This document shows, piece by piece, positions 6,557-34,003 of a stretch of DNA of 64,000 nucleotides (position 1 is its first letter; each line of letters begins with the position of its first letter). Both the position numbers and the translations under genes were made by a program. Location: IMG/VR virus record IMGVR_UViG_3300031227_000013; one strand, written 5' to 3'. Origin of the DNA: a virus. The notes beneath the pieces were generated by a model that saw nothing but the letters and a program-made list of their open reading frames with translations, did not search any database and was not told where the DNA came from.

Positions 6557-6919
6557 TTATTTATTTATTGAATTAAGTAAATTAAGACCTTTAATATTCA
6601 TAAGCTTCTGAGCTTTTGCCGGTGCTGCTTTTAATTCATGACGAACACCTTTAGCCATACCTGTTAAATCCTTTACTATACCGGGTGAAGCTGTGTGTTT
6701 AAGCTCTGGAGTTAGAGCTTTTAAAAAACCCGACTTCCGATTAAGTATTTTTGCTTCAAGATTTGTTAATGCTCTTGTAGCCATATTTCCAGGTAATAAA
6801 TTAGGGGACCTTCCACTTTTGGCTCCACGTTCCGCTAATCTTTTAAGCCATCTAATAAGGGGTTCTCCACGAGCTGCTTCCTTCTCCATATACCCTTTAT
6901 AGTATGCTAGTTTGTTCAT
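6557..6919 (-). CDS. Leader-family protein (MNKLAYYKGYMEKEA), basic cargo
   Basis: Shared N-terminal leader. Confidence 0.7.
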   Translation of the reverse strand: MNKLAYYKGYMEKEAARGEPLIRWLKRLAERGAKSGRSPNLLPGNMATRALTNLEAKILNRKSGFLKALTPELKHTASPGIVKDLTGMAKGVRHELKAAPAKAQKLMNIKGLNLLNSINK

Positions 6920-6951
6920 TTCTTCTTGTCCTTCTTAATATTTTTATATAA

Positions 6952-7605
6952 TTATGTTAAATTTACCTTGTACTTCATCTTCAATTGAGGATTAGACCTA
7001 CTTAATTCAAGTAGTTTTTTCAGTCTATAAGATCTCATTTTCTGCTCAGAAGTTGCCTTCTCATTTCTTATGCCGAATGGTCCTGACATGATATTATTAA
7101 AATACTTCTTCATTTCCCTATTCTTCTTCTGCCATTCAGGATTGGCTGCTAAATCTGGATGTACTCCAGCTGAACCATACCTAGTTTCTTGTCCTGATTT
7201 TGCACCTTGCTTAGCTCCCCCAATAGGATCTTTAGCTGTTTGAGCTCCTATTGTTGCTCCGACAGTTATTGGATTAAATGCCTCTTTCTCCATAACAGGT
7301 CGAGGTGTATGTTTTCCAAATACTAATGGAATACTCCTTTTCAATGAATTACTCCATCCTAAGTTTCCTTTAGAAATATTACCTATATCCACTTTAAAAT
7401 CATGTATGCTTTTATCTACATTTTCTGGAACTTCCTTTGCTATACCTCCTGCTACTCCTCCAGTTACAAAATCTCGTAACCATGATGCAGACCTCTGCTT
7501 CAGTTCCCTATTACGCATATGCCTATCAAGTTCTTCCTGTCGTGTAGGCATAATCCCTAAAGCTTCCTTCTCCATATACCCTTTATAGTATGCTAGTTTG
7601 TTCAT
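6952..7605 (-). CDS. Leader-family protein (MNKLAYYKGYMEKEA)
   Basis: Leader DNA is identical to that of 6557..6919; internal VMEKEAF motif. Confidence 0.7.
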   Translation of the reverse strand: MNKLAYYKGYMEKEALGIMPTRQEELDRHMRNRELKQRSASWLRDFVTGGVAGGIAKEVPENVDKSIHDFKVDIGNISKGNLGWSNSLKRSIPLVFGKHTPRPVMEKEAFNPITVGATIGAQTAKDPIGGAKQGAKSGQETRYGSAGVHPDLAANPEWQKKNREMKKYFNNIMSGPFGIRNEKATSEQKMRSYRLKKLLELSRSNPQLKMKYKVNLT

Positions 7606-9890
7606 TTTCTTTTGTCCTTAATATTTTTATATAGTTCTTGTCCACTGACAACACTCGGGATATATGATGTGCCTCCCCCTTCTGATGTGGCTCCTTTTTG
7701 AGCTGCATCTAAAAAAGACTTCTTAAGATCGAATCCTCCGAGGCGTGTTACCCAGTCCGGATCTGTTGATACAATGTCCCGGACACGGGATACAAACGGT
7801 TCAAATGGAGGGACATCCCTGTGTACTACTATATTACCTGTTTTAGCAGAAGACAACTTTTTTGCGACATTAGCTGTGATTTTAGTGCCTATAGAATAAT
7901 GCAGTACCGGTTTCTCCAGATACATTCCTACCGACTGTTTAGGATTCTGTAACGTCGAAGTAGGTCTGGGTCTATAATCTCTGACAACATCGTCGTAGGG
8001 TATAACATCGTTAATAAAATGTCCTTCGTATCCGTTAGGATCCGTTACCCGAACTCTGTTTATAAATCCACGGGAGATAGCTTCTATATTACGTCTATGG
8101 TTACCAGCCCCGTTATCCTTTAAAATCTTATTGTACCTCTCTGTGAAGTAGCGTCTGCCCTCTCCGATGCCTTTGTATTTGACAACCTCTCCTGGATTAG
8201 GAACTCCGGAAGATAAAGCATCTCCCGCTTCCATACGCTGTCCTGTCTTTACTTCTAACTTTCTATCTCCGGGTACATAATGTTCCTCGGAGTTGATATG
8301 TACATACCAGCCCCCTTGTGGAGCATCTTCTATCTTTCCTATGGAACCGTCTGTAGAAGCTAATGTAGCGGAGCCTATAAAATTCTTAGGAACCTGTACG
8401 AACTGGTCTATCTCTTTAAACCCTGTTACCTTCTTATCGTCTTCTCCGACAACCCCACCACTATGTTTACTGCTGTTGGATACTATCATTCCGTTAGCCA
8501 ATACAAAGAGATGATCTCTGCTATCTACTTCGAGATCGTATGTCTGTACTTCTCTGAGTCCTTCGCAATAACTCATCCAGCCCAGTACATTCTCTCCGGA
8601 CCTTTTAAATATAGCTGTGCCCAGAGACAGCAGAGGAATTATTTTATGTTTATTAAGTTCGCAGTCCCCCATAGGGAAGCCTAGTACTTTATGTTCCTTG
8701 GTAGCTATTAGATATTCACTGAATTTAACATCCAGACTTGCGAATATAGTATGGTAGCATTCTTTGATACCGTTGTTAAAAACGTTAAGAACTTTTACAG
8801 GGGATGTATTACATTGTACATCAGACCCCATAACAGATTCTCCAACCTGTATATCCTTGATCTTCCTGACAGATCCGTCTGCCATTCTTACAAGAGTGTT
8901 TTCTTCTAAACATAGTCCTGCCTGTGTAGTAGGTTCCGCGATAGCTCTGGCAGCTGTAACTCCTACAGCATCCCCTATATCAGGGAATTCTCCCCCTTCT
9001 CTGCGTCCGGAACATTTAGAACATATTCCTGTAGCGGCCTGACAGGTAGCTGCGGAACGCACATAAACAGGTTGGTCTTCCAGTAAAGGAAGATGTTCCT
9101 TATTTATTTCTGTTCCTGCAGGTAATCCGTTAACAGGTTTAGCGAGAATAGATCCGACATTGTCCGAATCATCCCCGTCTACTTCCAGCCCGACCTCTTG
9201 TGCTCCGCAATCATTCTCTGTAACTACTACTCTATGTGCGGCTTGTGTTAACTGCTTACCAAAATACCCACTGTCTGCTGTAGCGAACTGTACATCGCTA
9301 TACCCTTTTCTAGAGCCATACGAAGCGGCCCAGTATTCAATCGGAGACACACCCTCTCCATACCCGTGGAGTCCCGGAATAGGGACAGGTTTATTTTTAT
9401 GGTCGAGAACGAGCATGTCTCCGAACATTAGCTGCATGAGCTGGGCTGTGTTACCTCTAGCCCCTACACGAACCTGCTCTGTGAAACTGTTTTTGCCTCC
9501 GCCCGATCTTAGAAGGAGATTCTGAACTTTCTTCATTTCGGGAACAAGCAGTTTAACTATTTTTTCGCCCTTCTGATCGGAAGTTAGAGTCGGGCTGTTA
9601 GCTATCCTGGCAACATCGTCTCTGTATTTATTTCTGAGCTGTTTAATGGCAGGGGGCAGTTTAAGATCGTTAAGAGATAAACTTGCGGTCCTGCCATAGT
9701 CATTGACAGCCATTCGGGATACATCGCTTACCTTCTGTAAGGTATCTATATATCCATCGGGGTCGTCTTCAGCTACACTTGATAACAGAGCAGACAGAGA
9801 CTTCTTATCGAGTTCTCTGCCTTCATCTCTGTATTTCTCAGGAAGCGCTCTGTTAAAAAGCACTTTACCTATTGTTGTAGTATCGGGCAT
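7602..9890 (-). CDS. rpoC: DNA-directed RNA polymerase beta' C-terminal subunit, with mini-intein
   Basis: TTIGKVLFN, GARGNTAQLMQL, SYGSRKGYSDVQFATADSGYFGKQL (bridge helix), DCG...RSAATC...ICSKC Zn site, trigger loop EPTTQAGL/SSKHSGG, VTGFKEIDQF (cf. ITGGLPRV). Confidence 0.92.
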   Translation of the reverse strand: MPDTTTIGKVLFNRALPEKYRDEGRELDKKSLSALLSSVAEDDPDGYIDTLQKVSDVSRMAVNDYGRTASLSLNDLKLPPAIKQLRNKYRDDVARIANSPTLTSDQKGEKIVKLLVPEMKKVQNLLLRSGGGKNSFTEQVRVGARGNTAQLMQLMFGDMLVLDHKNKPVPIPGLHGYGEGVSPIEYWAASYGSRKGYSDVQFATADSGYFGKQLTQAAHRVVVTENDCGAQEVGLEVDGDDSDNVGSILAKPVNGLPAGTEINKEHLPLLEDQPVYVRSAATCQAATGICSKCSGRREGGEFPDIGDAVGVTAARAIAEPTTQAGLCLEENTLVRMADGSVRKIKDIQVGESVMGSDVQCNTSPVKVLNVFNNGIKECYHTIFASLDVKFSEYLIATKEHKVLGFPMGDCELNKHKIIPLLSLGTAIFKRSGENVLGWMSYCEGLREVQTYDLEVDSRDHLFVLANGMIVSNSSKHSGGVVGEDDKKVTGFKEIDQFVQVPKNFIGSATLASTDGSIGKIEDAPQGGWYVHINSEEHYVPGDRKLEVKTGQRMEAGDALSSGVPNPGEVVKYKGIGEGRRYFTERYNKILKDNGAGNHRRNIEAISRGFINRVRVTDPNGYEGHFINDVIPYDDVVRDYRPRPTSTLQNPKQSVGMYLEKPVLHYSIGTKITANVAKKLSSAKTGNIVVHRDVPPFEPFVSRVRDIVSTDPDWVTRLGGFDLKKSFLDAAQKGATSEGGGTSYIPSVVSGQELYKNIKDKRK
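8475..8912 (-). mobile_element. Mini-intein (146 aa) in the beta'-C trigger loop
   Basis: Starts CLEENTLVRMADG, ends TYDLEVDSRDHLFVLANGMIVSN, followed by Ser; no endonuclease domain. Confidence 0.9.
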
Positions 9891-10588
9891 TATACTCCAA
9901 GTAGTTTTTTTAAACTTTTCTCTGTCATTACTTCTTCGGGTAGCTTCTTAGAAACTATCCCTCCCATTTTTAGCGCAGCCTTATTAGAGACTCTAGTTTT
10001 TCCATATTTAAATCCGGGAAGAACCTTTTCCAACATTGGACGACTGCTATCTATATTCCTCATATGAGTAAAAAAATCTTTAACAGCTTTATATTTTTTA
10101 GGTAAAGAAGCTATCATATTACTTTCCTGAATAACTACTTCAGGCCCTCTATGCCCATGCCATAATTGAAAGGGTTTAGATAAGACCTGTTTACGTTCTA
10201 ATCCCTCATGCATAACTGAAAGGCGATTAATCATTTCTCTATTTATAGGTATTTTTGCATCGGGGTTAAAAAAATTCACCGCTGGGATATTTAAGATATC
10301 TCCTCTGGATATTATCTTACCTGGAGGAACATTAGGCATTTTAGGCATTTTCTTTCTTAAAACAGATGGAATATTTTGAGATGTTATAGCCCCTATACTA
10401 ATCAATGGCTCTTTATTACTAGACAATATTTTTTTAGTAAATCCTGTGAGGTTGGTATTCTCATTTATAAAAGGAGCTCGTCTAATCCAATCCCCTGACC
10501 GTCTAAGGAGTTTAGAGGCTTTACGGACTCCTTTTATATCTATAGCTTTCTTTTCAAGATATCCTATATGAAATGCTAATTTATTCAT
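9890..10588 (-). CDS. Leader-family protein (MNKLAFHIGYLEKKA), basic cargo
   Basis: Shared leader. Confidence 0.65.
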   Translation of the reverse strand: MNKLAFHIGYLEKKAIDIKGVRKASKLLRRSGDWIRRAPFINENTNLTGFTKKILSSNKEPLISIGAITSQNIPSVLRKKMPKMPNVPPGKIISRGDILNIPAVNFFNPDAKIPINREMINRLSVMHEGLERKQVLSKPFQLWHGHRGPEVVIQESNMIASLPKKYKAVKDFFTHMRNIDSSRPMLEKVLPGFKYGKTRVSNKAALKMGGIVSKKLPEEVMTEKSLKKLLGV

Positions 10589-10598
10589 TCGACATTAT

Positions 10599-10988: not shown

Positions 10989-10989
10989 T

Positions 10990-12679: not shown

Positions 12680-12691
12680 AATCCTCCCTCT

Positions 12692-13089: not shown

Positions 13090-13695
13090 TTATTCACCTC
13101 TTCTAACAGCCCGTGCTTTGTTAGCGTTGACAACAGCTTGTCTGCTTATAGGGGCTTTGTGGGCTGTATTCTCGCGTCTGGTAAGATTAGCATTTATAAC
13201 TTCCTGCTTGCTAATGGGGGCTCCTGTATTCATTACTCTTCCTGTCTTATTCTGATAATCCAGATAATTCTTTGTTATATCCTGTAGAGCACTATATGTT
13301 CGAGCCCCTGTGACTCCTGCAGCTACTATTGGTTTAGCATTGTCTGAATAACCTTCCCACATTCTTCTGGGAGTACTCTGTTTAAGAGATTCCTTCATAG
13401 TTTTATCTGCGTTGCGTTTTATATTCTTTAATATATCTTTATTCCAGCCCTTTGTAGGATCTTTAAAAACTTGCTTTCCAAAATCGTATGCTGTGAAGGC
13501 TGCATTAGTAGTAGGTTTACTTACTCCGTAATCAACCCCTCTATTAGCAGTACCTAACCTAACAGCTTCCTCTACGCCCCCTTCAACTAACTTAGACTTA
13601 TCATATAGCTTTTTAAAAGTAGTTCCCATACTATATGGAGCCGAGTTAAAAGCTTCCTTCTCTATATATCCCTGATAGTACGCTAGTTTATTCAT
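13090..13695 (-). CDS. Leader-family protein (MNKLAYYQGYIEKEA)
   Basis: Shared leader; TAATG overlap with the RNAP stop codon. Confidence 0.7.
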   Translation of the reverse strand: MNKLAYYQGYIEKEAFNSAPYSMGTTFKKLYDKSKLVEGGVEEAVRLGTANRGVDYGVSKPTTNAAFTAYDFGKQVFKDPTKGWNKDILKNIKRNADKTMKESLKQSTPRRMWEGYSDNAKPIVAAGVTGARTYSALQDITKNYLDYQNKTGRVMNTGAPISKQEVINANLTRRENTAHKAPISRQAVVNANKARAVRRGE

Positions 13696-16600
13696 TATAC
13701 TCCTCGTTTCCTGATCTTAACAGGTGTATCTATATCTATTTTACCTGTCTTGTATGCTTTGACAGCATCGGCTTCTGTTTCGAAAACAACCGGAGTTCCT
13801 TTGAGAGGAGTCTTTGTGGCAAGATGTGCTCCCTGTACATATTCCTGATCGGGTTTATACATCAGATTAAAATCTCTTGCTCCGAACAGAATCTTTTCCG
13901 GCATCATTTTATCTCTAGCTTCCGCAACTGCTTTAGCAGAGGAAGGCACATGTATCGTCATTGTATCTCCGTCGAAGTCCAGGTTAAACCCTTTAACTAT
14001 ATGCGGAGGTACTTGTAGAGTATCTCCCTTTGTAAGAATAGGATTAGCCGCAAGTATACTCCACTTGTGCATTGTCGGAGCTCTATTCATTAGAATAGGA
14101 CGTTCCTCCATAACAGCCCGCAGAGCGACCAAAGCGTCACCTTTTCTTTCAGATACAGATTTAGCGGCTTCTGTCGCTTTGTATCCCCCGCGCACCATAT
14201 GTCTTATAACGAAAGGCTCGTACAGTTCCCATGCTCTGTTCTCGGGCAATCCAACCTGATTTAATTTGAGAGAAGGATTAGGAGTTACTACAGCTCTCGA
14301 GGAAAGGTCAACAGCCCCTCCTACCATACGACGCTGCATCATCCCGTGCTTCGGACTTCCTTTTCCAAAGATAGTCTTTAAAAGCCCTCCAACACGCTTC
14401 TCCTGTAGTTCGACGCTATCGGGGTCTCCCAACCCTGAGATAGCTTTAAAGCTGTTATACAGCCGTTCCCGTACTTCAGGAAGATATTCGTCGGGTAGAG
14501 TAGTCTTGGCATCTCTTAGATCGTTTCTGCTGTGCAGGAGTTCTCTATATAGAATATTGAAGTCCGAAGACATATTCATATCGTCTGTTACAACAATAGG
14601 TCTGAACTTAGGAGGCAGTACAGGAACACGGGTCAGCATAAATTCGGTCGGGCTGACTTTATGTTCTTTCATAGACTGCAGAGCTCTGAGTCTTTTAACA
14701 GCGTTGTCTCTTCTGGAGGCTGATGCTGTCTTGACGTCGTTTAATGCGCTGCGTGTTTCCTGATCGACATCTATTTCGGAAAGCATCTTATACATAGCTT
14801 TCCCGCCTTTAACTCCTTTATACTCTTTACGTCCTGCTAGAAGATCTGTATACTCCTTCTGTTTGAGATTGAGTATTCTCCTCAGGAAGTCTTCCATCAC
14901 TGGATTTGGAACAGGCTCGTCTAGTTTGATGTACGAGAATCTGTTTCCTTCCGCTCCTCCTGTTAAGGTTTCGTCGAACAGTCCGCCTTTAACCGGCTTG
15001 AACTGTTTGGGATCGAATGTATCTGCGGTCTGTATCTGTCTGGTTCCTGTAAGTTCTTTGGCGTTCTCATTCGTCATCGCAAATATATTAAGTTTGTTCT
15101 TATCCTTATGTATATTAACTCCGGCAGCCTGTATCATCGCAAGGAACTTCTTGTATATAAAGCTTTCGTCGGGAACCGTAGGAGTACGACCCATTTTAAG
15201 ATCGCGCCAGTAGTCGTCGTTTTTAGACCCTCTTATCAGTTTGGCGTCTTTCATTATCTCTTTAGCGCCGTGGCTTACAAGGGCTGCAATTTCCATGCTA
15301 TTACTAACAAGAACTCCTCCCGCAGTATATGAATGTGTTTTATCAACAGTAAAATCATAAACATTAATTTCGTCTATTCCCGGTTTATCATGTTTATAAG
15401 GTCTAATATCTTTAATAGATACCGGAACTTTACCCATTCTATTAACAATATCCAATTTACGGGGAGGATTTACCAGTTGTCTCTCAGCTACCAGCTTTTT
15501 TAATTTCTTTTTTGTTTTAGGAATAATAGAGGCAGGAACATTTCTGGCTAACATATCTATCAGTATCCAACAAGATTCTGCTGTTAAATAAATAAACCAC
15601 TCTTCTTCCCGTCCTGAAGCTTTGTATATTTTTAGAGAAGATATATTTAATTTATTACCCAGCCATCTATGTAAAAGAACAACTTCTTCGTAAGTAAATC
15701 CATGGGTAGCTATTGCACCTTGTAAAGCAACCCCTCCCTTGACTTTAGAACGATTGGAAATAGATCCATCATCCAATACCCACATACAGATACCTAATTC
15801 ATCCACATGGCTCAGCCATTCTTCAGTTACATGTTTTTTACCGTCTTTTAAACAAACTGCTTTCATCTGATCAACTACATAAGCAGTAGGCATTGTTACT
15901 AATCCACGTCCATAACTTTTACCTGTTCTTTTTAAAAAACTAGGCTTACAATCACTTCTATAAGCCATCAGCCCCGCCAGAACCTTCTGCTTAAAATCCA
16001 TGTATTCTATTTGCTTTGTAGAATGCATAATCTGGATAACACTATTAAAATAGGAATCCCCCAACATACCTCCATACAATACATCCAGCTGATCTTTTGT
16101 TACCAGAGGCCCCCATGAAATAAGTTTATCATCAACTGTTAAATCACCGGCAAGTAATTCACATCCGTCAAATGTATATACCTTATGATTTTTAGTAGGA
16201 TATAAACAGGAGGTATACTTTATCTTTCTGTCTCCTGTCTCACAGGGAATACCTGATACTTCAACACACAATATATCTTCTATTTTAGCTCGATAAGTAA
16301 ACCAGTCCGTAATGGGTTTAAATGTCCACTCCTCCTTATCTTCATCAAATGTCCAGACCTGCTCGGCAAAACGTTTTTCAACTAATCTACCTATTTGTAT
16401 TTCTCCATGAATAGTTTTTATTTTTTGACCTGCTGGAAAGCAACCTATTCTCTTACTCTTCCCACCGCCTGTAGAGGGCTGTTCGTCCATTGTATATCCT
16501 GAGAACGACTTACCTCCGGACTTGGCTTCCGCGGTATGCTGTAACTTAAAAAAGTGTGAAACTCCGTTAAATACTTTAGGTATCTTACGTCCTGTTGTAG

Positions 16601-19600
16601 GGTCGTATATATCGTCTGTATCGCTAAGCCCATGCTTCTTGAGTTCCGTCTGTGCTAGATCTATAAAGGATTCGTCCGGGTCGTCTGTAAAACTTGGTAA
16701 TATATAAGGTTTACCTGTCTTGGTAGCTACCTTACCCAGTGACGATTCTATGAGCTGTGATGAATTCGTTCTGGATATTACACCTACAGGGTTAAGAATA
16801 ATTTCGTAAGGCTTACCGTCCTTATCGTGAATCATTTTGTTATCGGGAATTATATCTCCGACAACGCCCTTACCTCCGTAGAAATTTGCCAGTTTGTCGC
16901 CCCGCTTAGTTGTAGCGTTGGCTCGGACATAGACTTTCCAGCCCTCTTTATTCTTAACAACATCTGTGACAACGCCCGGGTCTTCATGCTCCCACTTCAC
17001 AGAAGAGTCTCTTGTTAGCCTACGACCCATTGTTCCGGGTCCGGGCTGTCTTGTCTTTGTAGATAGAATAAGCGGATCTCCCTGTCTGACGAGAGTTCCC
17101 GGTTTGACTGTACCTTCTTTACCGATAGTCTTGAACTGTTCCGCGGTAAACGTTCCCGGAAACATTGCTGTATACTTATCTTTAAGAACTTCCACTCCGC
17201 TTTCTTCACGAAGCTTATTAGCATACATATGTTCTGAGTTTAGTTTCTTCGCGGCACTTTCTGATATGACTATAGCATCTTCATGCACAGCCCCTTTATA
17301 AGGCATGTAAGCTACCCGGAGATTAAGTCCCAGAGCTGCTGTACCCTTATCGTCTGTAAAGTTAGATCCTGCGATAGCCTGTCCTTTTTTAACACGTTGT
17401 GCTCCCTTTACAAAAGGAATTGTACGCACGGATGTTTTTCTGCTGAAAGGAAAGTTATCGTAGGTATCGTACGAGGATGTTGTTCCGTCGTCGTTCTGTG
17501 TAGTTATCTTATCTTTGCTTATGGATTTAACGATACCATCTTTTTCAGAAGTTATTCTACCCATATGCGGGCTGATGTAATCGTATATATCCTTAGTACC
17601 GATTCTTGTACGGACAAGAGGAGCTTCTCTGTTTGTAAGAGGAAGCGCCTGATTGTGCATTTTCGACCCCATTAGCAAACGCATAGCTTTTATCCCGGAA
17701 GCCATAGGCACCAAGTTAGCTCCTGTACTGAAGAGATCGGAACCGCTGTTTATCATGTAATCCACAGATGTTCGGGGAACATACTTTATACCCTCTCCCT
17801 TTACCATCGCAGGAATAAACTTACCTTTGTATTTAAAACTTTCCGGAAAGGCTACAATAGATCTGGATGCTGTTACAGAATCCACATACTCCTGCTTACC
17901 TGTTTTTGTATTCAGGAACTTCTGATATACTTTACCGTCTTTCCCGTACTGAGTTCCCTGAGCCATCTTCATATCGACACCGACCCTTAGAGAGTTACCG
18001 CACCAGAAAGCTTTGCCTTTACGTCTTACATATACAAGACCTCCCTGAACAGTAGCACAATACACTACACCTTTATATTCTTTTTCGAAAGTATCGTTCT
18101 TTAGAATATAAATAATACCTCCGTCGATTTCCATATTAAAACCTTTACCCAGAATATCTTCGGCAAGCGTCATAACATATCCTATACCATTAGTCTTAAC
18201 ACGCATTCTATGATTAGGAGTAACAAGGAAGTTAACCTGTTTTTTACAACCTATCATCAGCCCGTCGTAATCGTAAGACTGAAGTCCTTCCGGAGTCTTA
18301 TAATAGACACAGTCATGAATACGGCAGGCCAGTTCGTCCTGCATTGTGATATCTTTAAATAGTTTCCAGCCCGTACTTGTTTTGATTTCTGTCTTGTCGT
18401 CGTAACATTCAGGACTTCTCACCATATCTACATACCCACGATATGTGGGCTGTACAGCTCTTGCTTCGTCAGGTACTGCATCCAGAGAGCTTATTCCACC
18501 CTCTCCCATTCTGGTAACCCTGTACGATTGATCTAAAGCGTCTAGAGGATTTATCTCCTCGAGCATCTGACTCAGCCCAGATGTATTGAACAGGCTGTCC
18601 ACATGTTTATTAAGCATTCCGGATTGTAAAGAGGATAAGTTACCCTGATTGGTAATCTTCCATAGTTTATTCCTGAGTACATTACCCGGATCTTTGAGTA
18701 TACGTTCGGCGAAATAGTTATGGGGCCCGTACATTCTCTGGAACTCCATAGAATCCCTATCGTCTGATTTGGCTGTTCCTCTGGATATGTTCAAAAGCTT
18801 TTTAGTAACATCTAGGAAAAGACCTGAACCGACATTGGAATGCGGAGCACCTAATGTTGTCTGTGTAGCGTCCGGGTCCAGCTCCATAGCATTAAAAGAT
18901 TGTTTAAGTGTTTCTATATCTCCCGCTTCCGGACCCATCATCTTTACTTCGGCTGTCTTATTCATACGCATGTGCTTAGGGATAAGGGTCTGTATAGCAC
19001 TGTGTACAGCTTGAGTTGTAGTACCGGCTCTGTTCCTCTTAAGGATTTCCGGCCCCCATGCATCTTCCAGTAAACTGTCCTGAACGCCTAGCGCCTGCAG
19101 TACCGGATAGAGTTTGATCTTTCTACCTCCGGATCTGATGTAGAACTCGGCTGTCTTAGGATTCATGGATACTTTAAAACTGTTTCCTGTTCCCTGTCTG
19201 ACATTGACGTGGGATTCGTATGTACCGTCTCCGGCTACTTTACTGTATACATTAGGAATAAGTCTAAACTGATTGATAAGGGATTGTTCGACTCCGTTAC
19301 GGACGAAGGTCCCTCTTTCTGTAAGATAAGGTACATTGAGTACAGTACGTTTACTTGTACGGTCTATGACTTTACCTGTCTCGTTGTCTCTGAGAGTCCA
19401 GTTACCCTGCAGTTTCTTTGTAAGAGACCTGTTGTTAAGGATAGCTTCCTTCTGCTCTTTGTATGAAAAACGTTTCGTATCTTTGTAGGAAGGATTATCC
19501 AACTCCAGGGTATATCTCTGATTGGATAAAGGAAAGCGTTGTTTAACAGCGTCTATAGAATAATCAAAAATCTGCTGTCTACGGTTATCGTAGTCGTCGA

Positions 19601-21398: not shown

Positions 21399-22334
21399 TT
21401 ATTGTAAAAACCCTTTAAACTTATTTAATATAGGCCCTGTCAGCCCTGAATTCAATATAGCCCCACCGATCATCCCGTAATTACCCATCTTTGATTTCAT
21501 CGCAGGAGGTTGTGAGAAGATAGTTCCCATTATGTTACCCAGCCCCAATCCGGCTACTGCGCCTACTCCTACCCTTGCCAATCCTTTAGCGATATCCATA
21601 CCGCTTATCATTCCTGAATCTTCGGGGCTGGCATTATCTATTCCTGCCACCAGTCGGGCTGTGAGGTCCGGTCCTAATATAGGAGCCTGTGTCTGTAGAA
21701 GATCCATAGAACTCATTTTAGGAATAGTAGGGTCTCCTATAAATTCTATAGCCCGTACTTTAGGTAATACAAAATCTTTACCAAGAGCAAAATCATTAGG
21801 GTTTCCATACGGAGAGTGTGAAGGTAATCCATAATCAGCAAGCTTCTGTAAAAGATTTTCTACCATGGTAGACTTTTCAATCGTGGTAGACTTTTCAGAA
21901 CTTATCTTAGGAAATCTATCTAAAGGTAGTTTATTGTTGAACAGAGGGGCTGAAAGATCTGATAAACTCCCTGTGTCCTCAAACTTCTTGTATGATCTCT
22001 GAAAAGGTTTGATTGTCTGTGTTAATGGAAGGGCTGCTCCTACCGCTCCGCCTATTCCTGCTAACCAAGGTTCCATCTTATCTCTCCTCTTAATATAATC
22101 CTGCCACGCCTGATTCTGCATCCCCGGATTATCTTTATGTGCTTTACGGATATGCATTCCGGCGAATTTATCCGACAGATATCTGTATCCGTACTTAGTT
22201 CCGAAATATCCAACTGTACCCATAAGCAGAGATCGTACAGCCGGATTGACTGTAGCTTTATTAAAAGCGCCCTGGATATCGGGGAGAGTAAGATCCCCTA
22301 TTCCAGCTTCTTTATTTATAGGTGCATTCTGCAT
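21399..22334 (-). CDS. Hypothetical membrane-associated protein with glycine-zipper segments
   Basis: Likely start MQNAPINKEA at 22334 (TAATG overlap); the ORF-track extension to 22532 overlaps the upstream gene. Confidence 0.6.
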   Translation of the reverse strand: MQNAPINKEAGIGDLTLPDIQGAFNKATVNPAVRSLLMGTVGYFGTKYGYRYLSDKFAGMHIRKAHKDNPGMQNQAWQDYIKRRDKMEPWLAGIGGAVGAALPLTQTIKPFQRSYKKFEDTGSLSDLSAPLFNNKLPLDRFPKISSEKSTTIEKSTMVENLLQKLADYGLPSHSPYGNPNDFALGKDFVLPKVRAIEFIGDPTIPKMSSMDLLQTQAPILGPDLTARLVAGIDNASPEDSGMISGMDIAKGLARVGVGAVAGLGLGNIMGTIFSQPPAMKSKMGNYGMIGGAILNSGLTGPILNKFKGFLQ

Positions 22335-22963
22335 TATCGTATATTCATTTCCTGAGGTGTTCCCTGTTGTAATCCTATCCCTAGTTGATCTCGAGGTATA
22401 TATCCTTTTGTAGGTCCGGCGTAATACATTCCTCCGCCTCCGGGCATATTCTGTCCTTGTGCCTGTCCTTTTCCTCCGCCTCCGAACAACATGGAACCTA
22501 AACCTAATGCTCCTATACCTCCAAGTACCCAAGGCATCGTCTTCAGTATAGTTTCTTTACTGGGAGTCATAGACTTAATTCCGGATTTTATATCACTCTT
22601 AGCTGTATCGAAAGGATGCTGTATATAATTTAAAGTCTTATGAGCCGCCTCTGGACTCATAACAGAAGTCATTCCTTTTCCTAAAACAGTACCTGCGGCA
22701 TTTATAGTATTACGCGGTAGATTGGCAACGTTATCTGCATATCCCTGCGCTGTATTATTCGCAAAACCGGCGACACTGCCTGGTTTTGTATATGCCCCTC
22801 CGGAGTAATCTGTAACCTTACCACTGGGACGCATAGAAAATTGTGCTCCTGACTCCGCCTGCTTCTGCAGACCTGCAGTATATGCTTTAATAAAAGCAGA
22901 CTTCCGCATAGCGGGATAATCCGACTTAACTCCGTATCCTAATAGAAAAGCTTCTTTATTCAT
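22334..22963 (-). CDS. Leader-family protein (MNKEAFLLGY), Gly-rich with one TM segment
   Basis: Leader variant; internal RKSAF and QKQA motifs. Confidence 0.6.
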   Translation of the reverse strand: MNKEAFLLGYGVKSDYPAMRKSAFIKAYTAGLQKQAESGAQFSMRPSGKVTDYSGGAYTKPGSVAGFANNTAQGYADNVANLPRNTINAAGTVLGKGMTSVMSPEAAHKTLNYIQHPFDTAKSDIKSGIKSMTPSKETILKTMPWVLGGIGALGLGSMLFGGGGKGQAQGQNMPGGGGMYYAGPTKGYIPRDQLGIGLQQGTPQEMNIR

Positions 22964-22967: not shown

Positions 22968-24860
22968 TTATACTCCGCCTGGAGGGATTTGTCCCTGCCT
23001 GGTTAGATTGACTCCGGTCTGAGCAGCCTGTTGTTCAAGCTCCTTAAGTTTAGATGTCACCATAGCATGGAGAGCATCGTCCGAATGTTTAAGATTAACC
23101 AACTCACTTCTTCGTGTAGTCGGATCCATTGTTAATATTTGCTGAGCGATCTGTTCTGCCTGTATCGCCATTTCATCTAGAGACTGAGGTCCACCCATAG
23201 GGGTAGGTCCTGCTCCCATAGGCATAGCTCCACCCATCTGGGATTCACCTGGCATCGGCATAGACATCCCACCCGGAGCCGGTCCACCCATAGAAGCCAT
23301 ATCCATCGGCATTCCCGGAGGAGGCATTCCACCCATTCCACCCGGTGCAGGTGCGGGCTGATCCATCATAGCCTGCCCCTCTTGATCTTTACCTGTACTT
23401 CTGGCAAGATCTGCAGCCTTCTCGTCGAACATCTGCTGTTCCAGAAGAATCTTATCGACTTCGTATTCGTAATCGATATTGAAAGCACTGAGGGCTGTCT
23501 GATTGGATACTTTGTTAGCACCCAGTAAATTTAGTTTGGTCTGTCTGACAAGATCATCTTCCAATACTGATGTTCTGGTAAGTTCTGCTCCAAGATCCTC
23601 CCACATCAGATGTTTACTGCATTGTCCCATCATCCAGTCCAGCCAGTTATTCATCTGCGAGATAAAATGTATCCAAGTTCTTTCGAACATTCTGAGACCT
23701 ATTGGAGGTCCTCCCTGTACAAGGTTACCTGAATAGAATTCCTGAGGTATCCCCATTGAATTAAGAAGTTCGTCCAGAGCAAGCTGAAGAAGTTCTGTAG
23801 GTGCCAGATTCTTAGCCTCTCCACCCAGAGCCTGATATTCCACAGGGTATGGGATCGAGTGTATAGCTGTAGGATCCTTGCGATGCTGTTTTATCATCCC
23901 TTCGACAGAACGCATGAAGCGTCCGCTGTCGATAGTCAATAAAGGGTCGTTACCCGGGCCACTGCCTTTACGGGTACCCGGAGAAATAAATCTAAAAGGA
24001 ACGATCATATCCATGGCGATGGCTTCGTTGTACTTAGTAAGCATCTGCAGATGGATGACCTGTTCGAAATTGGAAAGGAACGGAGGAAGTCCCCAGCCGT
24101 TCATCTTTGTAGTAAGAGAAGCTGCGGCCTCGCATTTGATATGATAGATCTCGCCCTTCTTGAACATAAACTTTTCGTCTTTAGCGATAGCATCCAGTAT
24201 CTCCCATGGAGTATGTTCCAGATACATCTTATTACCGCTTGTAATGTATCCTCTGACCTTACTCTGCGGTTCGTAGTAATATCTGGTCTCTCCGCTGATA
24301 TCGTGGTACTCCAACTCTATTGATCGTGGGTTCCAGCGGGTTATTCTGAGGTCGTCCTGTTCGTTAGGTATATCCTTGACAAGGAACTTACCCTTCTTAT
24401 TACACTTAGGGCAGGGGCCTTCGAAGCCGAAATCAGCCCACTCGTACTTTACCTGCTCTATAGGATGCATTGTCTTACAGTTTTTACATATAAGATTACG
24501 ATTGAAAGGTCTGTATACAGAAGTGAATGAATTACCGTATGCCATGAGATCGTCCCCCATAAGGGACATGACATCCAGAATGTGTAGATTGTCTGTAAGG
24601 AACTCCGCATACTTCTTCTTGATATTAAAATCGGAAGTACCTGTTATCTCTACTTTTGTAATGAAGTAGCGAACAGCCCGCTGGATGGCTTTGGAATATA
24701 CTCCCTGATGGAGCCATAGATATTCCGCCCAGTTGAATACTTCTTTTAGATTCCTCGGGTAATGAGCTCTGGCATATGTAGCGAAAGGACTGCCGAAGTC
24801 TTTCTGTCCGATAATATCCTGTGTAAGACTGAAAGGATTGGATTGTGAATAGTTAGCCAT
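22968..24860 (-). CDS. Putative portal protein with Zn-ribbon insertion and P/M/G-rich tail
   Basis: 630 aa; DLMAYGNSF portal-like motif; CKNC...CPKC; located in the head gene cluster. Confidence 0.55.
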   Translation of the reverse strand: MANYSQSNPFSLTQDIIGQKDFGSPFATYARAHYPRNLKEVFNWAEYLWLHQGVYSKAIQRAVRYFITKVEITGTSDFNIKKKYAEFLTDNLHILDVMSLMGDDLMAYGNSFTSVYRPFNRNLICKNCKTMHPIEQVKYEWADFGFEGPCPKCNKKGKFLVKDIPNEQDDLRITRWNPRSIELEYHDISGETRYYYEPQSKVRGYITSGNKMYLEHTPWEILDAIAKDEKFMFKKGEIYHIKCEAAASLTTKMNGWGLPPFLSNFEQVIHLQMLTKYNEAIAMDMIVPFRFISPGTRKGSGPGNDPLLTIDSGRFMRSVEGMIKQHRKDPTAIHSIPYPVEYQALGGEAKNLAPTELLQLALDELLNSMGIPQEFYSGNLVQGGPPIGLRMFERTWIHFISQMNNWLDWMMGQCSKHLMWEDLGAELTRTSVLEDDLVRQTKLNLLGANKVSNQTALSAFNIDYEYEVDKILLEQQMFDEKAADLARSTGKDQEGQAMMDQPAPAPGGMGGMPPPGMPMDMASMGGPAPGGMSMPMPGESQMGGAMPMGAGPTPMGGPQSLDEMAIQAEQIAQQILTMDPTTRRSELVNLKHSDDALHAMVTSKLKELEQQAAQTGVNLTRQGQIPPGGV

Positions 24861-25736: not shown

Positions 25737-26258
25737 TTAGTACTTCTTCAATTCCCATGGATTAGGTTTAAAGTTAGCCTCTCCTATATCAAAATCTATA
25801 GGCCCATCTGTACTTGCTCTGAATCTATTTTGATATGAAGGTTCATCTTTATATTGTCTGTTAGGTAGCATATCCAGAGGTCTCTGACGGGGATTAAAAG
25901 CTCCATACTGCTGATTAGCGTCTGGGGCTTTAGTCTTACCTGCTATAAGTTTATTGATCCATTTGTACATCTCAGGGCTGTAGAATCCACCGAGACCGCC
26001 TAAACCTGCTCCAGCCAAGGCTCCCTTCATTCCGCCCATAGCGTAACCACCGAGACCACCTGCTACTGCGCCTCCAGCTCCTAGAAGCATCTTCTTGTAT
26101 TTAGGATCGGCCCATATCTTCTCTAGAAACTTCATATCCAGAGCCAGCTTTTCTGTAGCTTCTTTATCGAGTGCCCCGGGTTCCCCATAGTGCTCTCTGT
26201 ATATAACTAGAGCTTCTTTAGGGTTGTGGTATGCGAAGTAAAACGCTGTCTTATTCAT
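25737..26258 (-). CDS. Leader-family protein (MNKTAFYFAY..PKEA) with glycine zipper
   Basis: Leader variant; GAGGAVAGGLGG segment. Confidence 0.65.
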   Translation of the reverse strand: MNKTAFYFAYHNPKEALVIYREHYGEPGALDKEATEKLALDMKFLEKIWADPKYKKMLLGAGGAVAGGLGGYAMGGMKGALAGAGLGGLGGFYSPEMYKWINKLIAGKTKAPDANQQYGAFNPRQRPLDMLPNRQYKDEPSYQNRFRASTDGPIDFDIGEANFKPNPWELKKY

Positions 26259-26415
26259 CTTTTATATCCTTTATAGTAGTATCATTGTAATAAGGCATTG
26301 TCGGTAAAGTGCCTTCTTCGAACTGTCTTAGTATCTCCAGAGCTTCCTCTGGTAATTCGAACAGACTATACGGGTCTTTCGGTATAGTCTGTTTAGCTAT
26401 CTTTTCTTCAGACAT
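26251..26415 (-). CDS. Small hypothetical protein (54 aa)
   Basis: Translated by hand: MSEEKIAKQTIPKDPYSLFELPEEALEILRQFEEG...; TAATG overlap with the upstream gene. Confidence 0.5.
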   Translation of the reverse strand: MSEEKIAKQTIPKDPYSLFELPEEALEILRQFEEGTLPTMPYYNDTTIKDIKDE

Positions 26416-26915
26416 TATTTCTTTTCAGCATCTATGCTTTTCTTAACAGCGTATCCGACACCTGCAGCTGGAGCTGCTACTGCTGTACCACCTACCAGTT
26501 GTCTAATTAACTTGTCTTTATTAAATTTCTTAGGTTCGGCAGATACAGCTTTAGTTTTATTTAATTTATCAAGTACAATCTTTAAATCATTTTTAACTGC
26601 ATTAGCGGCTCCCCTTCCAACAGCTATAGGAGCATCTATCAATGCTTTCTTAGTTCCTTGGACTGCTGCATTGACTCCCTTACCTACCTGTTTTCCACTA
26701 TTCAAAGCTAACTTCCCACTTTTGAGAGCTCCTTTACCCGCTAATTTCCCACTTTTTAAGCCTAGTTTCCCGCCTCCTATAATAGCGCCCCCCAGCCCTT
26801 CCAATGCCAGACCTCCAGCCTTAAAAGGAATTTTAGCGACATCTGTAATGAGTCCAGATTCTTTGGTAAGGTTATCAAGCTCCATATATCCCGTATAAAA
26901 TGCTATCTTATCCAT
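26415..26915 (-). CDS. Leader-family protein (MDKIAFYTGYME), K/G/A-rich
   Basis: Shared leader. Confidence 0.65.
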   Translation of the reverse strand: MDKIAFYTGYMELDNLTKESGLITDVAKIPFKAGGLALEGLGGAIIGGGKLGLKSGKLAGKGALKSGKLALNSGKQVGKGVNAAVQGTKKALIDAPIAVGRGAANAVKNDLKIVLDKLNKTKAVSAEPKKFNKDKLIRQLVGGTAVAAPAAGVGYAVKKSIDAEKK

Positions 26916-27229
26916 TATTTATCCTTATCTTTCTTCTTCCCTTTAGTTGCCTGAGCAATACCTGCACCAGCTGCTACTACTCCTGCACCAGTACCATATC
27001 TAACTAACTTCTGCATGTCTTCTGCATTAGCTACATCTGCACCTGCTTGTGTTAAAACAGGCGGGGGCACATATCTTCCTGTAACGGCCTTAATCTTTTC
27101 TAGAGCTTCTCTCAATTTATTAACGTTAGCATTGCCCATATGTTTTGCATAGCTTTTAGCCATCTGTATAGGCCCGGCTTCTTTTTCGATGACATCCATA
27201 TATCCTGTGTAAAATGCTATCTTATTCAT
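26915..27229 (-). CDS. Leader-family protein (MNKIAFYTGYMDVIEKEA)
   Basis: Shared leader. Confidence 0.65.
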   Translation of the reverse strand: MNKIAFYTGYMDVIEKEAGPIQMAKSYAKHMGNANVNKLREALEKIKAVTGRYVPPPVLTQAGADVANAEDMQKLVRYGTGAGVVAAGAGIAQATKGKKKDKDK

Positions 27230-29033: not shown

Positions 29034-29065
29034 TATATAATGCCAATAAAAGGAGATTAATTAAG
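29034..29065 (-). promoter_or_regulatory. Conserved promoter (CTTAAT-N17-CATTAT)
   Basis: 32 nt identical to 13051..13082. Confidence 0.75.
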
Positions 29066-29536
29066 CTTCTCCTGTGTTATCTTGCTCTGCTTGTTCTTAG
29101 GAAGTTTCTTCTCGATACGGAAGCTTAGAAGCTTTCGACCGTTGACTGTGGGCTGTCCCAGTTCGTCTGTCCCTATATCTTTAACTTCCATCCGTTTGTT
29201 CTTGAACCTTCCGCCTAAAAGAATATCTCCTTTATTTATATCCAGGTCCAAAGCAGTCTTACCTATATATCCCATGTAGTATGCTGTCTTGTGCATAGAT
29301 CCTATCTTTCTGAGTTTGGATAAAGCGTCTGTATCGAATCCTACTGTAGTCTCCGCAAGATACTTGAGTCCTTCTCTGGTCTTGAAGAAGTCGTAGGGTA
29401 TAACAGCCCTAAGAGCCTCTTTAGCTTTACGAGCCTTAGCACTCCTACTCTGCAGCTGGGACATAGTAAGTCCCGTAGCTCTGGCATAGTCGTGTATGTT
29501 TCCTGCGAAGTTACGGAAGGAGGCTGTCTTGTTCAT
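29057..29536 (-). CDS. Protein with N-terminal MNKTA and an internal second leader (MHKTAYYMGYIGKTA)
   Basis: The internal leader precedes the domain DINKGDILLGGRFKNKRMEVKDIGTDELGQPTVNG. Confidence 0.65.
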   Translation of the reverse strand: MNKTASFRNFAGNIHDYARATGLTMSQLQSRSAKARKAKEALRAVIPYDFFKTREGLKYLAETTVGFDTDALSKLRKIGSMHKTAYYMGYIGKTALDLDINKGDILLGGRFKNKRMEVKDIGTDELGQPTVNGRKLLSFRIEKKLPKNKQSKITQEKLN

Positions 29537-31859: not shown

Positions 31860-31860
31860 A

Positions 31861-32361
31861 TTATACCTTAGGAGGGTTTTTATCTCCTGTAAGGATTTGA
31901 TATCCTTCAGGATCTTTTCTTTTAGCTTTGTTATTGAAGTTAATAGCCTTATGTTTGAGAGGCCCTACATTCTCTTTACGATATGTTGTCCACAGCATCT
32001 TATATTTATCTAGAAGATCTGTTCTTTCTTTATCGTATTCTCCGGACATATATCTACCTTTAAAAGGGCTTTCATTGGATAATCCCTTGACGTAATTCAT
32101 CTTACGGGTATTCTCCAGAGCGCCTCCGGCCTTATATCCTCCGTAGGCTGACCCGCCTGTGAGAACTATTTGAGCAAGTGCTGCCAGAAGGGGATGCTTT
32201 ATTTTCCCAGCCATTTTAAGTCCGGCTACAGATCCTCCGACACCTCCGGCAATGGCTCCGACATCTGAATAATTCTTACCTTTTCTTGTAAACTCCTGCT
32301 GCTCCGGATCGATCTCCGACAGCTTATTCATGTACGCTTGATAATATGCTAGTTTGTTCAT
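31861..32361 (-). CDS. Leader-family protein (MNKLAYYQAYMNKLS) with glycine zipper
   Basis: Shared leader; GAIAGGVGGSVAG segment. Confidence 0.65.
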   Translation of the reverse strand: MNKLAYYQAYMNKLSEIDPEQQEFTRKGKNYSDVGAIAGGVGGSVAGLKMAGKIKHPLLAALAQIVLTGGSAYGGYKAGGALENTRKMNYVKGLSNESPFKGRYMSGEYDKERTDLLDKYKMLWTTYRKENVGPLKHKAINFNNKAKRKDPEGYQILTGDKNPPKV

Positions 32362-33077
32362 TATGTCACCTTTCGTGCTATTTTATGTCTCTTCACGAAG
32401 AATGCAGACTCGCCTCTGGATTTAAGGAGCTTACCCATATCTTCGAAACTAATATAACATTCACTATCCATACCCCAGCCCTTACCCCAGCTGTTGTGCA
32501 GTGTGAATCGTTCCTTCTTAATATTAACTGCGTTACAGAGTATACAATGTCCGCCTAATCTGTCTCCGGTGACTTTGATGTATCCTTCGCTGTTGGGGCT
32601 GTACATTCCCTTATACCACGGTACTCCCAATACAGCAGGTCCGTTGTATCCTACTCCGAGCATCAGGTCTTCCAGCCCGAATCCCCATCTATAGCTTTCC
32701 ATCCATCCCAGCTTGTGTGCTATCTTGACACCTGCCAGAACACTGGAGCCTTCGTAGACAGGAGAGGCTCCGGGATAACTTCCTCCGGGCCATCTGTCTA
32801 TCTTCTGCGCTTCCCAGTATATCTGTTCCTTAGCATACTTATGAGTAAGCCCCTGTACTTCCGCGGGACGGGCTGCTAATTCATGCGCTATTCCATGACC
32901 CACACAACTCCCCTCATTTTTCTGATCCAGCCATGCCCTGCATCTCCATGTATAGGAGCGGGGTTTCTTCGCTGTCAGGATATCTGTTATAGGGAACTGT
33001 TTACTTCTTTCATCAAACTTCTCTATACGGTCCAGTCTTATATCTTCGGTAGTACCTTCTTTAAGTTTTATCGACAT
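32361..33077 (-). CDS. Papain-like (C1) cysteine peptidase
   Basis: LDQKNEGSCVGHG (Gln, Cys), GGHCIL (His), LHNSWGKGWG (Asn). Confidence 0.85.
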   Translation of the reverse strand: MSIKLKEGTTEDIRLDRIEKFDERSKQFPITDILTAKKPRSYTWRCRAWLDQKNEGSCVGHGIAHELAARPAEVQGLTHKYAKEQIYWEAQKIDRWPGGSYPGASPVYEGSSVLAGVKIAHKLGWMESYRWGFGLEDLMLGVGYNGPAVLGVPWYKGMYSPNSEGYIKVTGDRLGGHCILCNAVNIKKERFTLHNSWGKGWGMDSECYISFEDMGKLLKSRGESAFFVKRHKIARKVT

Positions 33078-33094
33078 TATATTTTCCTATAGTT

Positions 33095-33118
33095 AAAAGA
33101 AGGGGTGTAACCCCTTCT
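33095..33118 (-). terminator. Intrinsic terminator
   Basis: AGAAGGGG-TTACA-CCCCTTCT followed by TTTAACT; near-identical to 27515..27540. Confidence 0.8.
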
Positions 33119-33139
33119 ATAAATCTTACTACTTTACTA

Positions 33140-33649
33140 TTACTCTTCTTCTGTTTCGACTTCCTGCTCTGGTATTGGAGTATCGTTGAGAGCATCCGGA
33201 TACATCTTTAATAGTTTTTGAAGGGCTGAATAGACTATCTCTTCCCCTTCGTGCGGATCGACTCCCAGAGACTTATAAAACTCGTGCGCATTGTCGTCGT
33301 CCAGATTCTCCTGTGTGGCCATAAAGTCCAATATCATTTTGATATCATCAGGCCCCGGGTCTCCCAGCGTACTCTCCTCTTTAGCATCGTCTTCCATGTC
33401 TTCGAGTCTATTGTAGTAATCAGGTATCTCGTCTAGATGATCCTGTGAGATCTCTTCTGCTACATCGGGTGTATCTGTATGTTCCAGCTCTACAGCCCGA
33501 CCCTTCTGAGTCTGCTCTTCTATCTTCTCCGGATCTACCTGCTTCTCCTGTGCTATATCCTGTGTATCCTTACCGTCGGCTTTACCGCCTTCTATAAGTT
33601 CTTTCGCCTTCTTATTCATATATCCTTCGTAGTATGCTATCTTATTCAT
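33140..33649 (-). CDS. Leader-family protein (MNKIAYYEGYMNKKA) with DUF5661-like domain
   Basis: GGKADG...KGRAVELEHT...EEISQDHLDEIPDYYNRL. Confidence 0.7.
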   Translation of the reverse strand: MNKIAYYEGYMNKKAKELIEGGKADGKDTQDIAQEKQVDPEKIEEQTQKGRAVELEHTDTPDVAEEISQDHLDEIPDYYNRLEDMEDDAKEESTLGDPGPDDIKMILDFMATQENLDDDNAHEFYKSLGVDPHEGEEIVYSALQKLLKMYPDALNDTPIPEQEVETEEE

Positions 33650-33661
33650 TATTTATCCTTT

Positions 33662-34003
33662 TTATTTTAGTAAAGAACCTGCTTCAGCAAGTTTGGCTTT
33701 CTCGGCTTTTCTTGATATTGAAGACATAATATCAGTAGTATCGATAAGCATCTTTCCTACTTCTGTATTCAGCCCCTTCTTCTTCATATCTATGAGTTGT
33801 TTTGCGGCTGCTGAAATATCCTTATGCCCTCTGGGAAGATTAAATGTCTGTTTGGCAGAATCTAAAAATATAGGTATAGCTCCTTTAAAATGTTTATCCT
33901 TACCTTTAACCTTTTGAAGTAATCTTCCCATAGTTTTTAGATACATATCTGTTCTGGAGGCTTCCTTATTCATATATCCTTCGTAGTATGCTATCTTATT
34001 CAT
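33662..34003 (-). CDS. Leader-family protein (MNKIAYYEGYMNKEA), basic cargo
   Basis: Leader DNA is identical to that of 33140..33649. Confidence 0.7.
   Translation of the reverse strand: MNKIAYYEGYMNKEASRTDMYLKTMGRLLQKVKGKDKHFKGAIPIFLDSAKQTFNLPRGHKDISAAAKQLIDMKKKGLNTEVGKMLIDTTDIMSSISRKAEKAKLAEAGSLLK

Follow-up and report, generated by a model that had tools for sequence, protein, structure and literature searches.

A two-site N-terminal leader on fourteen unrelated proteins of an Arash/D69-like phage, a candidate label for loading into the phage head

Bacteriophage T4 marks its internal proteins IPI-III and Alt with a capsid-targeting sequence (CTS), a tag of 10-20 residues that is removed by the prohead protease gp21 and is sufficient to load foreign proteins (PMC3012670, PMC5694885). 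In phiKZ and SPN3US, the propeptides of head and ejection proteins are cut by gp175 or gp245 at (S/A/G)-x-E (PMC5694885). Here we describe a 15-residue N-terminal leader on 14 otherwise unrelated proteins encoded in a 64,000-nucleotide stretch of phage DNA, referred to as the window, whose numbering is used throughout unless another source is named. The window corresponds, on the reverse strand, to bases 114901-178900 of IMG/VR record IMGVR_UViG_3300031227_000013, a phage genome of 185,256 bp with terminal repeats that is rated complete. Its closest cultured relatives are Salmonella phage Arash and Vibrio phages D69, D148 and D181, which have in common with it the synteny of portal and RNA polymerase genes and whose portals are 28-32% identical to its own.

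Other systems are also relevant to the comparison. Herpesvirus assemblin has the gp21 fold and cleaves at Ala-Ser, and in staphylococcal phage 80alpha a cysteine protease of the host, Prp, removes a common N-terminal leader. Encapsulin cargo-loading peptides are usually C-terminal, remain uncut and bind the shell directly, with no protease involved.

The leader reads M-N-K-L-A / Y-Y-x-G-Y / M-E-K-E-A and contains two copies of a hydrophobic-x-Lys-x-Ala motif (M-N-K-L-A and M-E-K-E-A) around an aromatic core. The core pattern K.A[FY][YFHL].[GA]Y gave 14 matches in the window, all on the minus strand between 6919 and 34003 (mononucleotide shuffles, 0.02), and no further match in the remaining 121 kb of the genome. 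A hidden Markov model (HMM) of the leader, run against all 269 open reading frames (ORFs), likewise returned exactly 14 matches in the genome, at 21.9-34.7 bits, with the next best at 2.9 bits. All copies fall within a 27-kb stretch that surrounds the genes of the portal and the RNA polymerase (Table 1). Thirteen of them stand at residue 1 of an ORF (34003, 33649, 32361, 27229, 26915, 26258, 22963, 21381, 13695, 10988, 10588, 7605 and 6919), each with an AG-rich ribosome-binding stretch upstream, and the fourteenth begins at an in-frame ATG, 29296, within ORF 29057-29536; the stretch from this ATG is a free-standing, leader-first gene of 78 residues in the related contigs L021, L023 and L035.

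A preliminary description of this DNA, made from its letters alone, had reported a common leader of about 15 residues on about 14 proteins, and the HMM count bears it out. Its list of copies stands for the thirteen residue-1 ORFs, including 26258 and 22963, which it had set apart as variants; the latter carries the tandem form MNKEAFLLGY...MRKSAFIKAY, which counterparts in L009, L016 and L017 have at the same position. Two entries fall away, since ORF 20776 and the annotated start 29536 share only M-N-K-T-A with the leader, the true copy in the second ORF being the internal one; the longer form of that ORF also overlaps the upstream gene. The same description had called the sequences after the leader unrelated, and rightly so: the best blastp E-value between any two bodies is 0.06, 13 of the 14 bodies are basic (isoelectric point 9-11), and one matches DUF5661 (PF18905, E 1e-11). 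Its statement that all leader genes lie in the head module holds only loosely, because the same stretch also contains a hexapeptide-transferase-like gene, a papain-like peptidase and small Cys-rich genes.

The two ORFs with starts at 20776 and 29536 begin M-N-K-T-A-S and are otherwise unlike the leader. Comparable starts occur in the cultured relatives: the RNA polymerase beta subunits Arash gp206 (L013:21920) and D69 0261 (L014:22050) have the N-termini MPKSAS or MPKKAS, and another D69 head-module protein, 0272 (L014:35751), starts MFKSAS. Judged by their residues, these starts are copies of the motif at the very N-terminus, as in M-N-K-T-A-S.

Conservation of the leader resides in the protein. 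DNA identity is 72% over the leader, 35% upstream and 27% over the body, the upstream DNA being unrelated save for the AG-rich ribosome-binding stretch, and different codons are used at 38% of the identical residue pairs among leaders. These observations support selection on the leader protein, which forms a discrete module on unrelated bodies. A regulatory repeat acting at the DNA or RNA level was rejected, given the low upstream identity, the variation of synonymous codons and the bounding of conservation by the coding leader; a paralogous family with a conserved N-terminal domain was rejected as well, since the bodies are dissimilar and have no common Pfam or PHROG family. Two adjacent gene pairs, 7605/6919 and 34003/33649, do carry 39-44 identical bases in their leaders, and this identity ends within the motif, at the K-E-A codons in the first pair and at the Lys codon in the second, which suggests recent duplication or conversion.

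The leader is also found beyond this genome. DNA pattern scans located it on 4 IMG/VR contigs and on 22 metagenome contigs from four samples, often in several genes per contig. A 30-column leader profile searched against 1.84 billion cluster representatives (E <= 0.001) gave 48 matches, of which 46 begin at residue 1, with bodies that are again unrelated. About 80 distinct tagged N-termini are known from metagenomes, and the 80 aligned give the consensus M-N-K-[LI]-A-[YF]-[YL]-x-G-Y-[MIL]-[EDN]-K-x-[AS], near-invariant over positions 1-15 and variable from position 16. A few proteins carry internal or tandem copies. In the cultured relatives Arash and D69 no leader was found, and among 80 loci around protease homologues the tag lies within 10 kb only at L071. 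Weaker or variant tags occur in three further genomes. In the GC-richer relative G003, variant tags (RRAAYLTGYMSGGMSKQA, EKAAFYAGYTSGGLRKTA, INKIAFMEGYMSKRA) lie a few residues in from the N-terminus and adjoin the portal gene (L120:5637-7162 and 9562-10422); its capsid protein is 82% identical and its protease only 43%. A de novo search of the relatives for other common N-termini yielded only two-member cases, in L047 and L050, ending Y-L-x-K-x-A. A full-text literature search for the tag strings found no paper.

A separate observation concerns P0001, a metagenome protein of 674 residues with three copies of the leader in frame, HKEEHE standing ahead of both internal copies; it would be either a polyprotein cut at its tags or a run of fused genes.

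Comparison of orthologues separates the elements of the leader. The 311-residue gene at 21399-22334, which starts MQNAPINKEA, has orthologues with the full tag in L011, L015 and L026, and its counterpart is split in L011 (5354-6330) and L022 (4405-5381) into two adjacent genes, each with its own leader. In the fused form both aromatic cores are lost, and what is left is an initial NKEA and, where the two halves join, EKST. Gene 32361 similarly has an orthologue with a degenerate start, MSILKSYLDYIVKQAA, in L016. Orthologues that lost the aromatic core retain the K-x-A/S element in both cases, and the tag can be gained or lost on orthologues. New to the present analysis are the two motif copies held by the tag and the loss of the aromatic core in orthologues while the K-x-A site stays.

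The motif that closes the leader also marks the proteins of head assembly. It occurs 151 times in the whole genome against 77 expected, with 82 occurrences against 26 in the head region (genome 144.8 kb to end) and 69 against 51 in the rest. Particularly, it is found 11 times in the 429-residue protein at 2102-3391 (1.1 expected), 9 times in the protease at 658-2112 (1.0 expected), 8 times in the 762-residue protein at 4239-6527 (1.4 expected) and 4 times in the scaffold-like protein (0.85 expected); the proteins adjoining the gp21-fold protease are enriched 7-10-fold. When the four assembly proteins are pooled, Lys and Ala (32 observed, 4.4 expected) form the lone outlier among 400 possible hydrophobic-x-X-x-Z motifs, the next best reaching 7 against 1.5. 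The cultured relatives behave alike: Arash gp220 has 9 copies (0.8 expected), gp223 has 8 (0.8 expected) and the protease gp222 has 6 (1.1 expected), and D69 0268, 0270, 0271 and 0273 are likewise enriched. The enrichment was not seen in portals or polymerase subunits. For 46 genes upstream of the protease in relatives the count is 183 against 47, and when genes upstream of the protease are aligned, no a-x-b pair other than K-x-A is conserved in at least 60% of the sequences. An alignment of 40 capsid proteins, the most distant at 28% identity, has only 14 invariant columns; K26 and A28 are two of these, and the residues around them often look like the tag's end (PGMEKTA, GMQKQA, VIRKEA). Outside the window and far from the head module, a 339-residue protein (genome G000:C1:59697-60716) has 8 copies where 0.9 are expected (p about 4e-6), and may be a further scaffold, core or cargo protein whose gene lies elsewhere.

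The protease itself belongs to the T4 kind. An AF2 (AlphaFold2) model of the 484-residue protein (pLDDT 88) comprises a beta-rich domain (1-231), a disordered linker (232-243) with K240-V-A242 and a helical domain at the C-terminus; near residues 430-450 confidence is low, and this stretch includes another conserved K-x-A site. VIA-align matched T4 gp21 (5jbl_C) at Z 11.2, with a root-mean-square deviation of 3.0 A over 149/166 residues and the next match at Z 5.0, while Foldseek alone gave a weak result (E 0.37). This match and the site in the disordered linker lead us to read the protein as a gp21-fold domain followed by a predicted cuttable linker, an arrangement reminiscent of SPN3US gp245 and related phage proteases, for which self-processing at the C-terminus has been reported (PMC5694885). 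His119 and Ser171, invariant in 72 homologues, are the putative catalytic residues. In the same 72 sequences, five positions show a conserved K-x-A/S, making it the conserved a-x-b pair seen most often. IMG/VR contains at least 463 relatives of the family; of the 80 listed, most lie on contigs of about 100-210 kb. The tag closes with a conserved K13 and A/S15, whereas position 14 between them is E, K, T, Q, R or S, which does not agree with the (L/I)-x-Glu consensus; the protease of this group appears, from these patterns, to recognise hydrophobic-x-Lys-x-Ala instead.

Taken together, a short N-terminal peptide on unrelated proteins, ending in the motif of the capsid, scaffold and core proteins and accompanied in the head module by a prohead protease of the gp21 (assemblin-like) fold, has the attributes of a T4-type system. 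We consider it probable that the leader is a propeptide of the T4 CTS kind, which would mark small, mostly basic proteins for the prohead and then be removed by the gp21-fold protease. Such a label, loaded first and clipped later, is the most likely reading because the leader has two copies of the very motif that marks the head-assembly proteins of the group; its protein-level conservation, its K-x-A end, the motif enrichment, the invariance of the capsid site and the linker site of the protease together make a T4 CTS-like tag with another cut site the best fit. The preliminary description had proposed precisely a T4-like but distinct address tag ending in K-x-A. The K-x-A end agrees well with the excess in the assembly proteins and with the invariant K-x-A of the capsid N-terminus, and the proposal is partly supported, gaining from the tag module, the protease fold and the enrichment; its further steps, packaging, cutting and ejection, we infer.

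Under this reading, the prohead protease would act at hydrophobic-x-K-x-A sites in the scaffold and core proteins and in the capsid propeptide, and would likewise cut itself, the motif being the presumed cut site, with the cut falling, at a guess by analogy as to its position relative to the motif, after the Ala. One sub-lineage would have evolved a stereotyped tag, two such sites around an aromatic core, that spread to many small basic proteins. The tag would consist of a first protease motif (M-N-K-L-A), an aromatic core (Y/F-Y-x-G-Y), taken as the docking element that probably does the targeting, and a second protease motif (M/I/L-x-K-x-A), at which conservation ends. It would direct the small basic proteins into the assembling prohead, where they would be packaged, and then be removed.

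In its principle this address label is that of T4, and what differs here is its sequence, its predicted site, its two-site build and the number of tagged genes. Like the T4 CTS, the leader is a short N-terminal peptide on otherwise unrelated and mostly basic proteins, it ends in a motif found likewise in the capsid propeptide and in the core and scaffold proteins, and a gp21-fold protease is present; additionally, identical leader DNA on neighbouring genes suggests cassette exchange. Unlike the T4 CTS, from which it apparently differs in sequence, the tag here has a predicted site of hydrophobic-x-Lys-x-Ala instead of (L/I)-x-Glu and consists of two motif copies around an aromatic core; 14 genes per genome are tagged, compared with a handful in T4, and the phage falls in the Arash/D69-like group, which packages a multisubunit RNA polymerase. 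A gp21-related protease and a virion RNA polymerase are also found in phiKZ and SPN3US, which process many inner-head proteins, and SPN3US gp53 and gp54 have an identical 15-residue N-terminus; the propeptides of those phages, however, are mostly longer than 100 residues, have Glu at P1 and include no single stereotyped tag on many unrelated proteins. In assemblin, as predicted here, Ala precedes the cut, and many of the hydrophobic-x-K-x-A sites of this group read K-x-A-S, but the herpesvirus enzyme needs no conserved Lys at P3 and the system here is that of a phage. Encapsulin cargo peptides, too, are short conserved peptides on unrelated cargo, theirs directing it into an HK97-fold shell, whereas the tag described here is N-terminal and its removal by a protease is proposed.

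Several observations weigh against the CTS-like reading. The tag-bearing phages are known from their genes alone and none has been cultured. Some motif copies lie inside the folded domain of the protease and cannot all be cut. The AF2 model of the capsid protein puts K26-A28 inside helix 22-43 and not in a loop, so the invariance of the two residues could be structural; we take this outcome as neutral for the placement of the site. Neither the portal nor the RNA polymerase subunits, all expected in the head, carry the tag, which therefore is not the sole route into it. The loss of the aromatic core in one orthologue family makes this core dispensable for at least one protein. Finally, the Gly-zipper hydrophobic stretches of about six bodies are also compatible with a membrane role in the infected cell.

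The orthologues also bear on a reading in which the leader is a processing signal only, trimmed by the prohead protease or another protease for activation or maturation, while something else directs entry into the head. K-x-A, rather than the aromatic core, is the best conserved and most widespread element, and small head-module proteins of the relatives have varied N-termini that end in the motif (YLIKTA, WMQKKA). We nevertheless regard this reading as unlikely, because a cut site alone leaves unexplained the near-invariant A5, Y/F6, G9 and Y10 across 80 unrelated bodies, and likewise the two motif copies flanking the aromatic core.

Rather doubtful, in turn, is a permanent docking motif that stays uncut and anchors the proteins to the scaffold, portal, DNA or inner wall of the capsid, with hydrophobic-x-K-x-A then serving the assembly proteins as a common binding motif. 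The encapsulin peptides would be its precedent, and the helical location of the capsid K-x-A and the internal or tandem copies (three in P0001, and the tandem in gene 22963) would suit it. Conservation, though, stops exactly after the Ala, and the motif reaches its highest density in scaffold-like proteins and in the disordered linker that follows a gp21-fold domain, which is the pattern of cleavage sites in T4 and phiKZ (PMC5694885).

We hold it no less doubtful that the tag is unrelated to the virion and acts, as an amphipathic N-terminal helix or as a stability or degradation tag, on proteins that work in the infected cell, for instance at the membrane. The consensus MNKLAYYQGYMEKEA, read for secretion and lipoprotein signals, shows no hydrophobic signal-peptide core, no twin arginine and no lipobox Cys; the leader genes are interleaved with portal and RNA polymerase genes, with overlapping start and stop codons, and the motif of the tag is common to capsid, scaffold and protease proteins. 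All of this speaks against such a role, even though 6 of the 14 bodies have Gly/Ala-rich hydrophobic stretches, a papain-like peptidase of the lysis type lies among the leader genes, and no body matches a PHROG of known function or a known virion protein family.

That this papain-like peptidase (32361-33077), and not the prohead protease, removes the leader is very improbable: it does sit between two leader genes, its stop codon overlapping the start of one, and Prp of 80alpha offers a precedent, but its family occurs in 54 unrelated phage records, mostly of actinophages, with several members lying beside a holin or themselves annotated as lysins, which leaves it without a link to the tag, none was found in the short tag-bearing contigs, and the excess of K-x-A goes with the gp21-fold protease in Arash and D69, whose tagless portal-region loci gave no match to the peptidase. 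As a candidate for a tag-specific protease it was accordingly not supported. By its alignments to the PDB cysteine protease 3ois and to cathepsin B, which span GGH...NSWG, it is a genuine C1-type enzyme.

The surroundings of the leader genes are summarised in Table 1. Nearly all genes of the window lie on the minus strand, and the 6.5-34 kb stretch holds the portal, RNA polymerase and papain-like peptidase genes together with many small genes. Downstream, in the direction of transcription, follow genes for proteins of 762, 274 and 429 residues and then the protease; just beyond the edge of the window lie the scaffold-like protein, two decoration-like paralogues and the 334-residue major capsid protein. 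Both RNA polymerase subunits are among the most abundant proteins detected in Arash virions, the homologue of the beta/beta' fusion being detected the most, which speaks for the CTS-like reading, and Arash gp218, to which the 762-residue protein is weakly similar, is annotated as a 'structural protein' from virion mass spectrometry (PMC10585845). The 429-residue protein may be a core or scaffold component, one that cleavage would reduce to short fragments. Midway through the tagged cluster, a gene (27542-28486) joins a hexapeptide-repeat (left-handed beta-helix) domain to one resembling a nucleoside 2-deoxyribosyltransferase, and a long array of small paralogous genes (34043-49679) directly adjoins the first leader gene. 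Met/Pro/Gly-rich repeats (PPMDPAMMGG-like) are present in a 280-residue protein (10990-11832), at the C-terminus of the portal (about 22968-23400) and in relatives (L071:2184-2912, L047:1-282); by its composition, the repeat is an unusual low-complexity element conserved across the group.

Table 1. Leader genes and other features of the window, with the matches or scores on which each assignment rests.
Feature	Coordinates	Strand	Match or score
Leader gene, 113 aa, basic body (MNKIAYYEGYMNKEA)	33662..34003	-	HMM 30.5 bits
Leader gene, 169 aa, only acidic body, DUF5661 match	33140..33649	-	PF18905 E 1e-11
Papain-like (C1) peptidase, without leader, among leader genes	32361..33077	-	phrog_16701 E 4e-53
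Leader gene, 166 aa, Gly-rich hydrophobic stretch (MNKLAYYQAYMNKLS)	31861..32361	-	leader HMM
Leader gene, 79 aa from internal ATG (MHKTAYYMGYIGKTA)	29057..29296	-	HMM 23.7 bits at residue 81 of longer ORF
Leader gene, 104 aa, 3-residue insert ahead of K-E-A	26915..27229	-	HMM 34.7 bits
Leader gene, 166 aa, Gly/Ala-rich, 5-residue insert and K-E-S	26415..26915	-	leader HMM
Leader gene, 173 aa, glycine-zipper-like stretch (MNKTAFYFAYHNPKEA)	25737..26258	-	leader HMM
Portal protein	22968..24860	-	phrog_2739; 28-32% identity to Arash/D69 portals
Leader gene, 209 aa, directly after portal, tandem motif copies (MNKEA.., MRKSA.., LQKQA)	22334..22963	-	leader HMM
311-aa gene, aromatic part of leader lost, P-I-N-K-E-A kept	21399..22334	-	
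Leader gene, 102 aa (MDKMAFYTGYMEGIPKVA)	21073..21381	-	leader HMM
RNA polymerase beta and N-terminal part of beta' (fused), with inteins, without leader	13695..19691	-	
Leader gene, 201 aa, start overlaps RNA polymerase gene stop	13090..13695	-	HMM 33.1 bits
Leader gene, 129 aa	10599..10988	-	leader HMM
Leader gene, 232 aa (MNKLAFHIGYLEKKA)	9890..10588	-	leader HMM
RNA polymerase beta' C-terminal part, with intein, without leader	7602..9890	-	
Leader gene, 217 aa, second internal V-M-E-K-E-A at residue 105	6952..7605	-	leader HMM
Leader gene, 120 aa, 44 identical leader DNA bases with gene 7605	6557..6919	-	leader HMM
762-aa head protein, 8 hydrophobic-x-K-x-A sites	4239..6527	-	weakly similar to Arash gp218
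429-aa protein upstream of protease, 11 hydrophobic-x-K-x-A sites	2102..3391	-	
Prohead protease: gp21-fold domain 1-231, disordered linker, helical C-terminal domain	658..2112	-	AF2, VIA-align

The CTS-like reading can be extended, more tentatively, to the history of the group. It is possible that the gp21-fold protease of Arash/D69-like phages switched from Glu to Lys-x-Ala and that one sub-lineage then assembled a portable tag of two sites and an aromatic core for docking, which in each genome would load into the head no fewer than 14 fast-evolving, unrelated proteins, some of which would act on membranes, for delivery to the host together with the multisubunit RNA polymerase; the tag would in that case be a second, independent packaging signal, usable as a tool.

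If the CTS-like reading is true, the 'address label' principle of T4 would have a second example, independent of it in sequence, in a group whose cultured members, Arash, D69, D148 and D181, are barely studied, and the leader would predict for a gp21-fold protease a new specificity, Lys-x-Ala, that is testable in these relatives. The tag could then also serve to load proteins into phage heads, and the motif gives annotators a simple flag for scaffold, core and cargo proteins in the group. For the biology of these phages, the tagged N-termini would amount to a catalogue of about 80 candidate packaged or ejected proteins, likely factors of host takeover or counter-defence.

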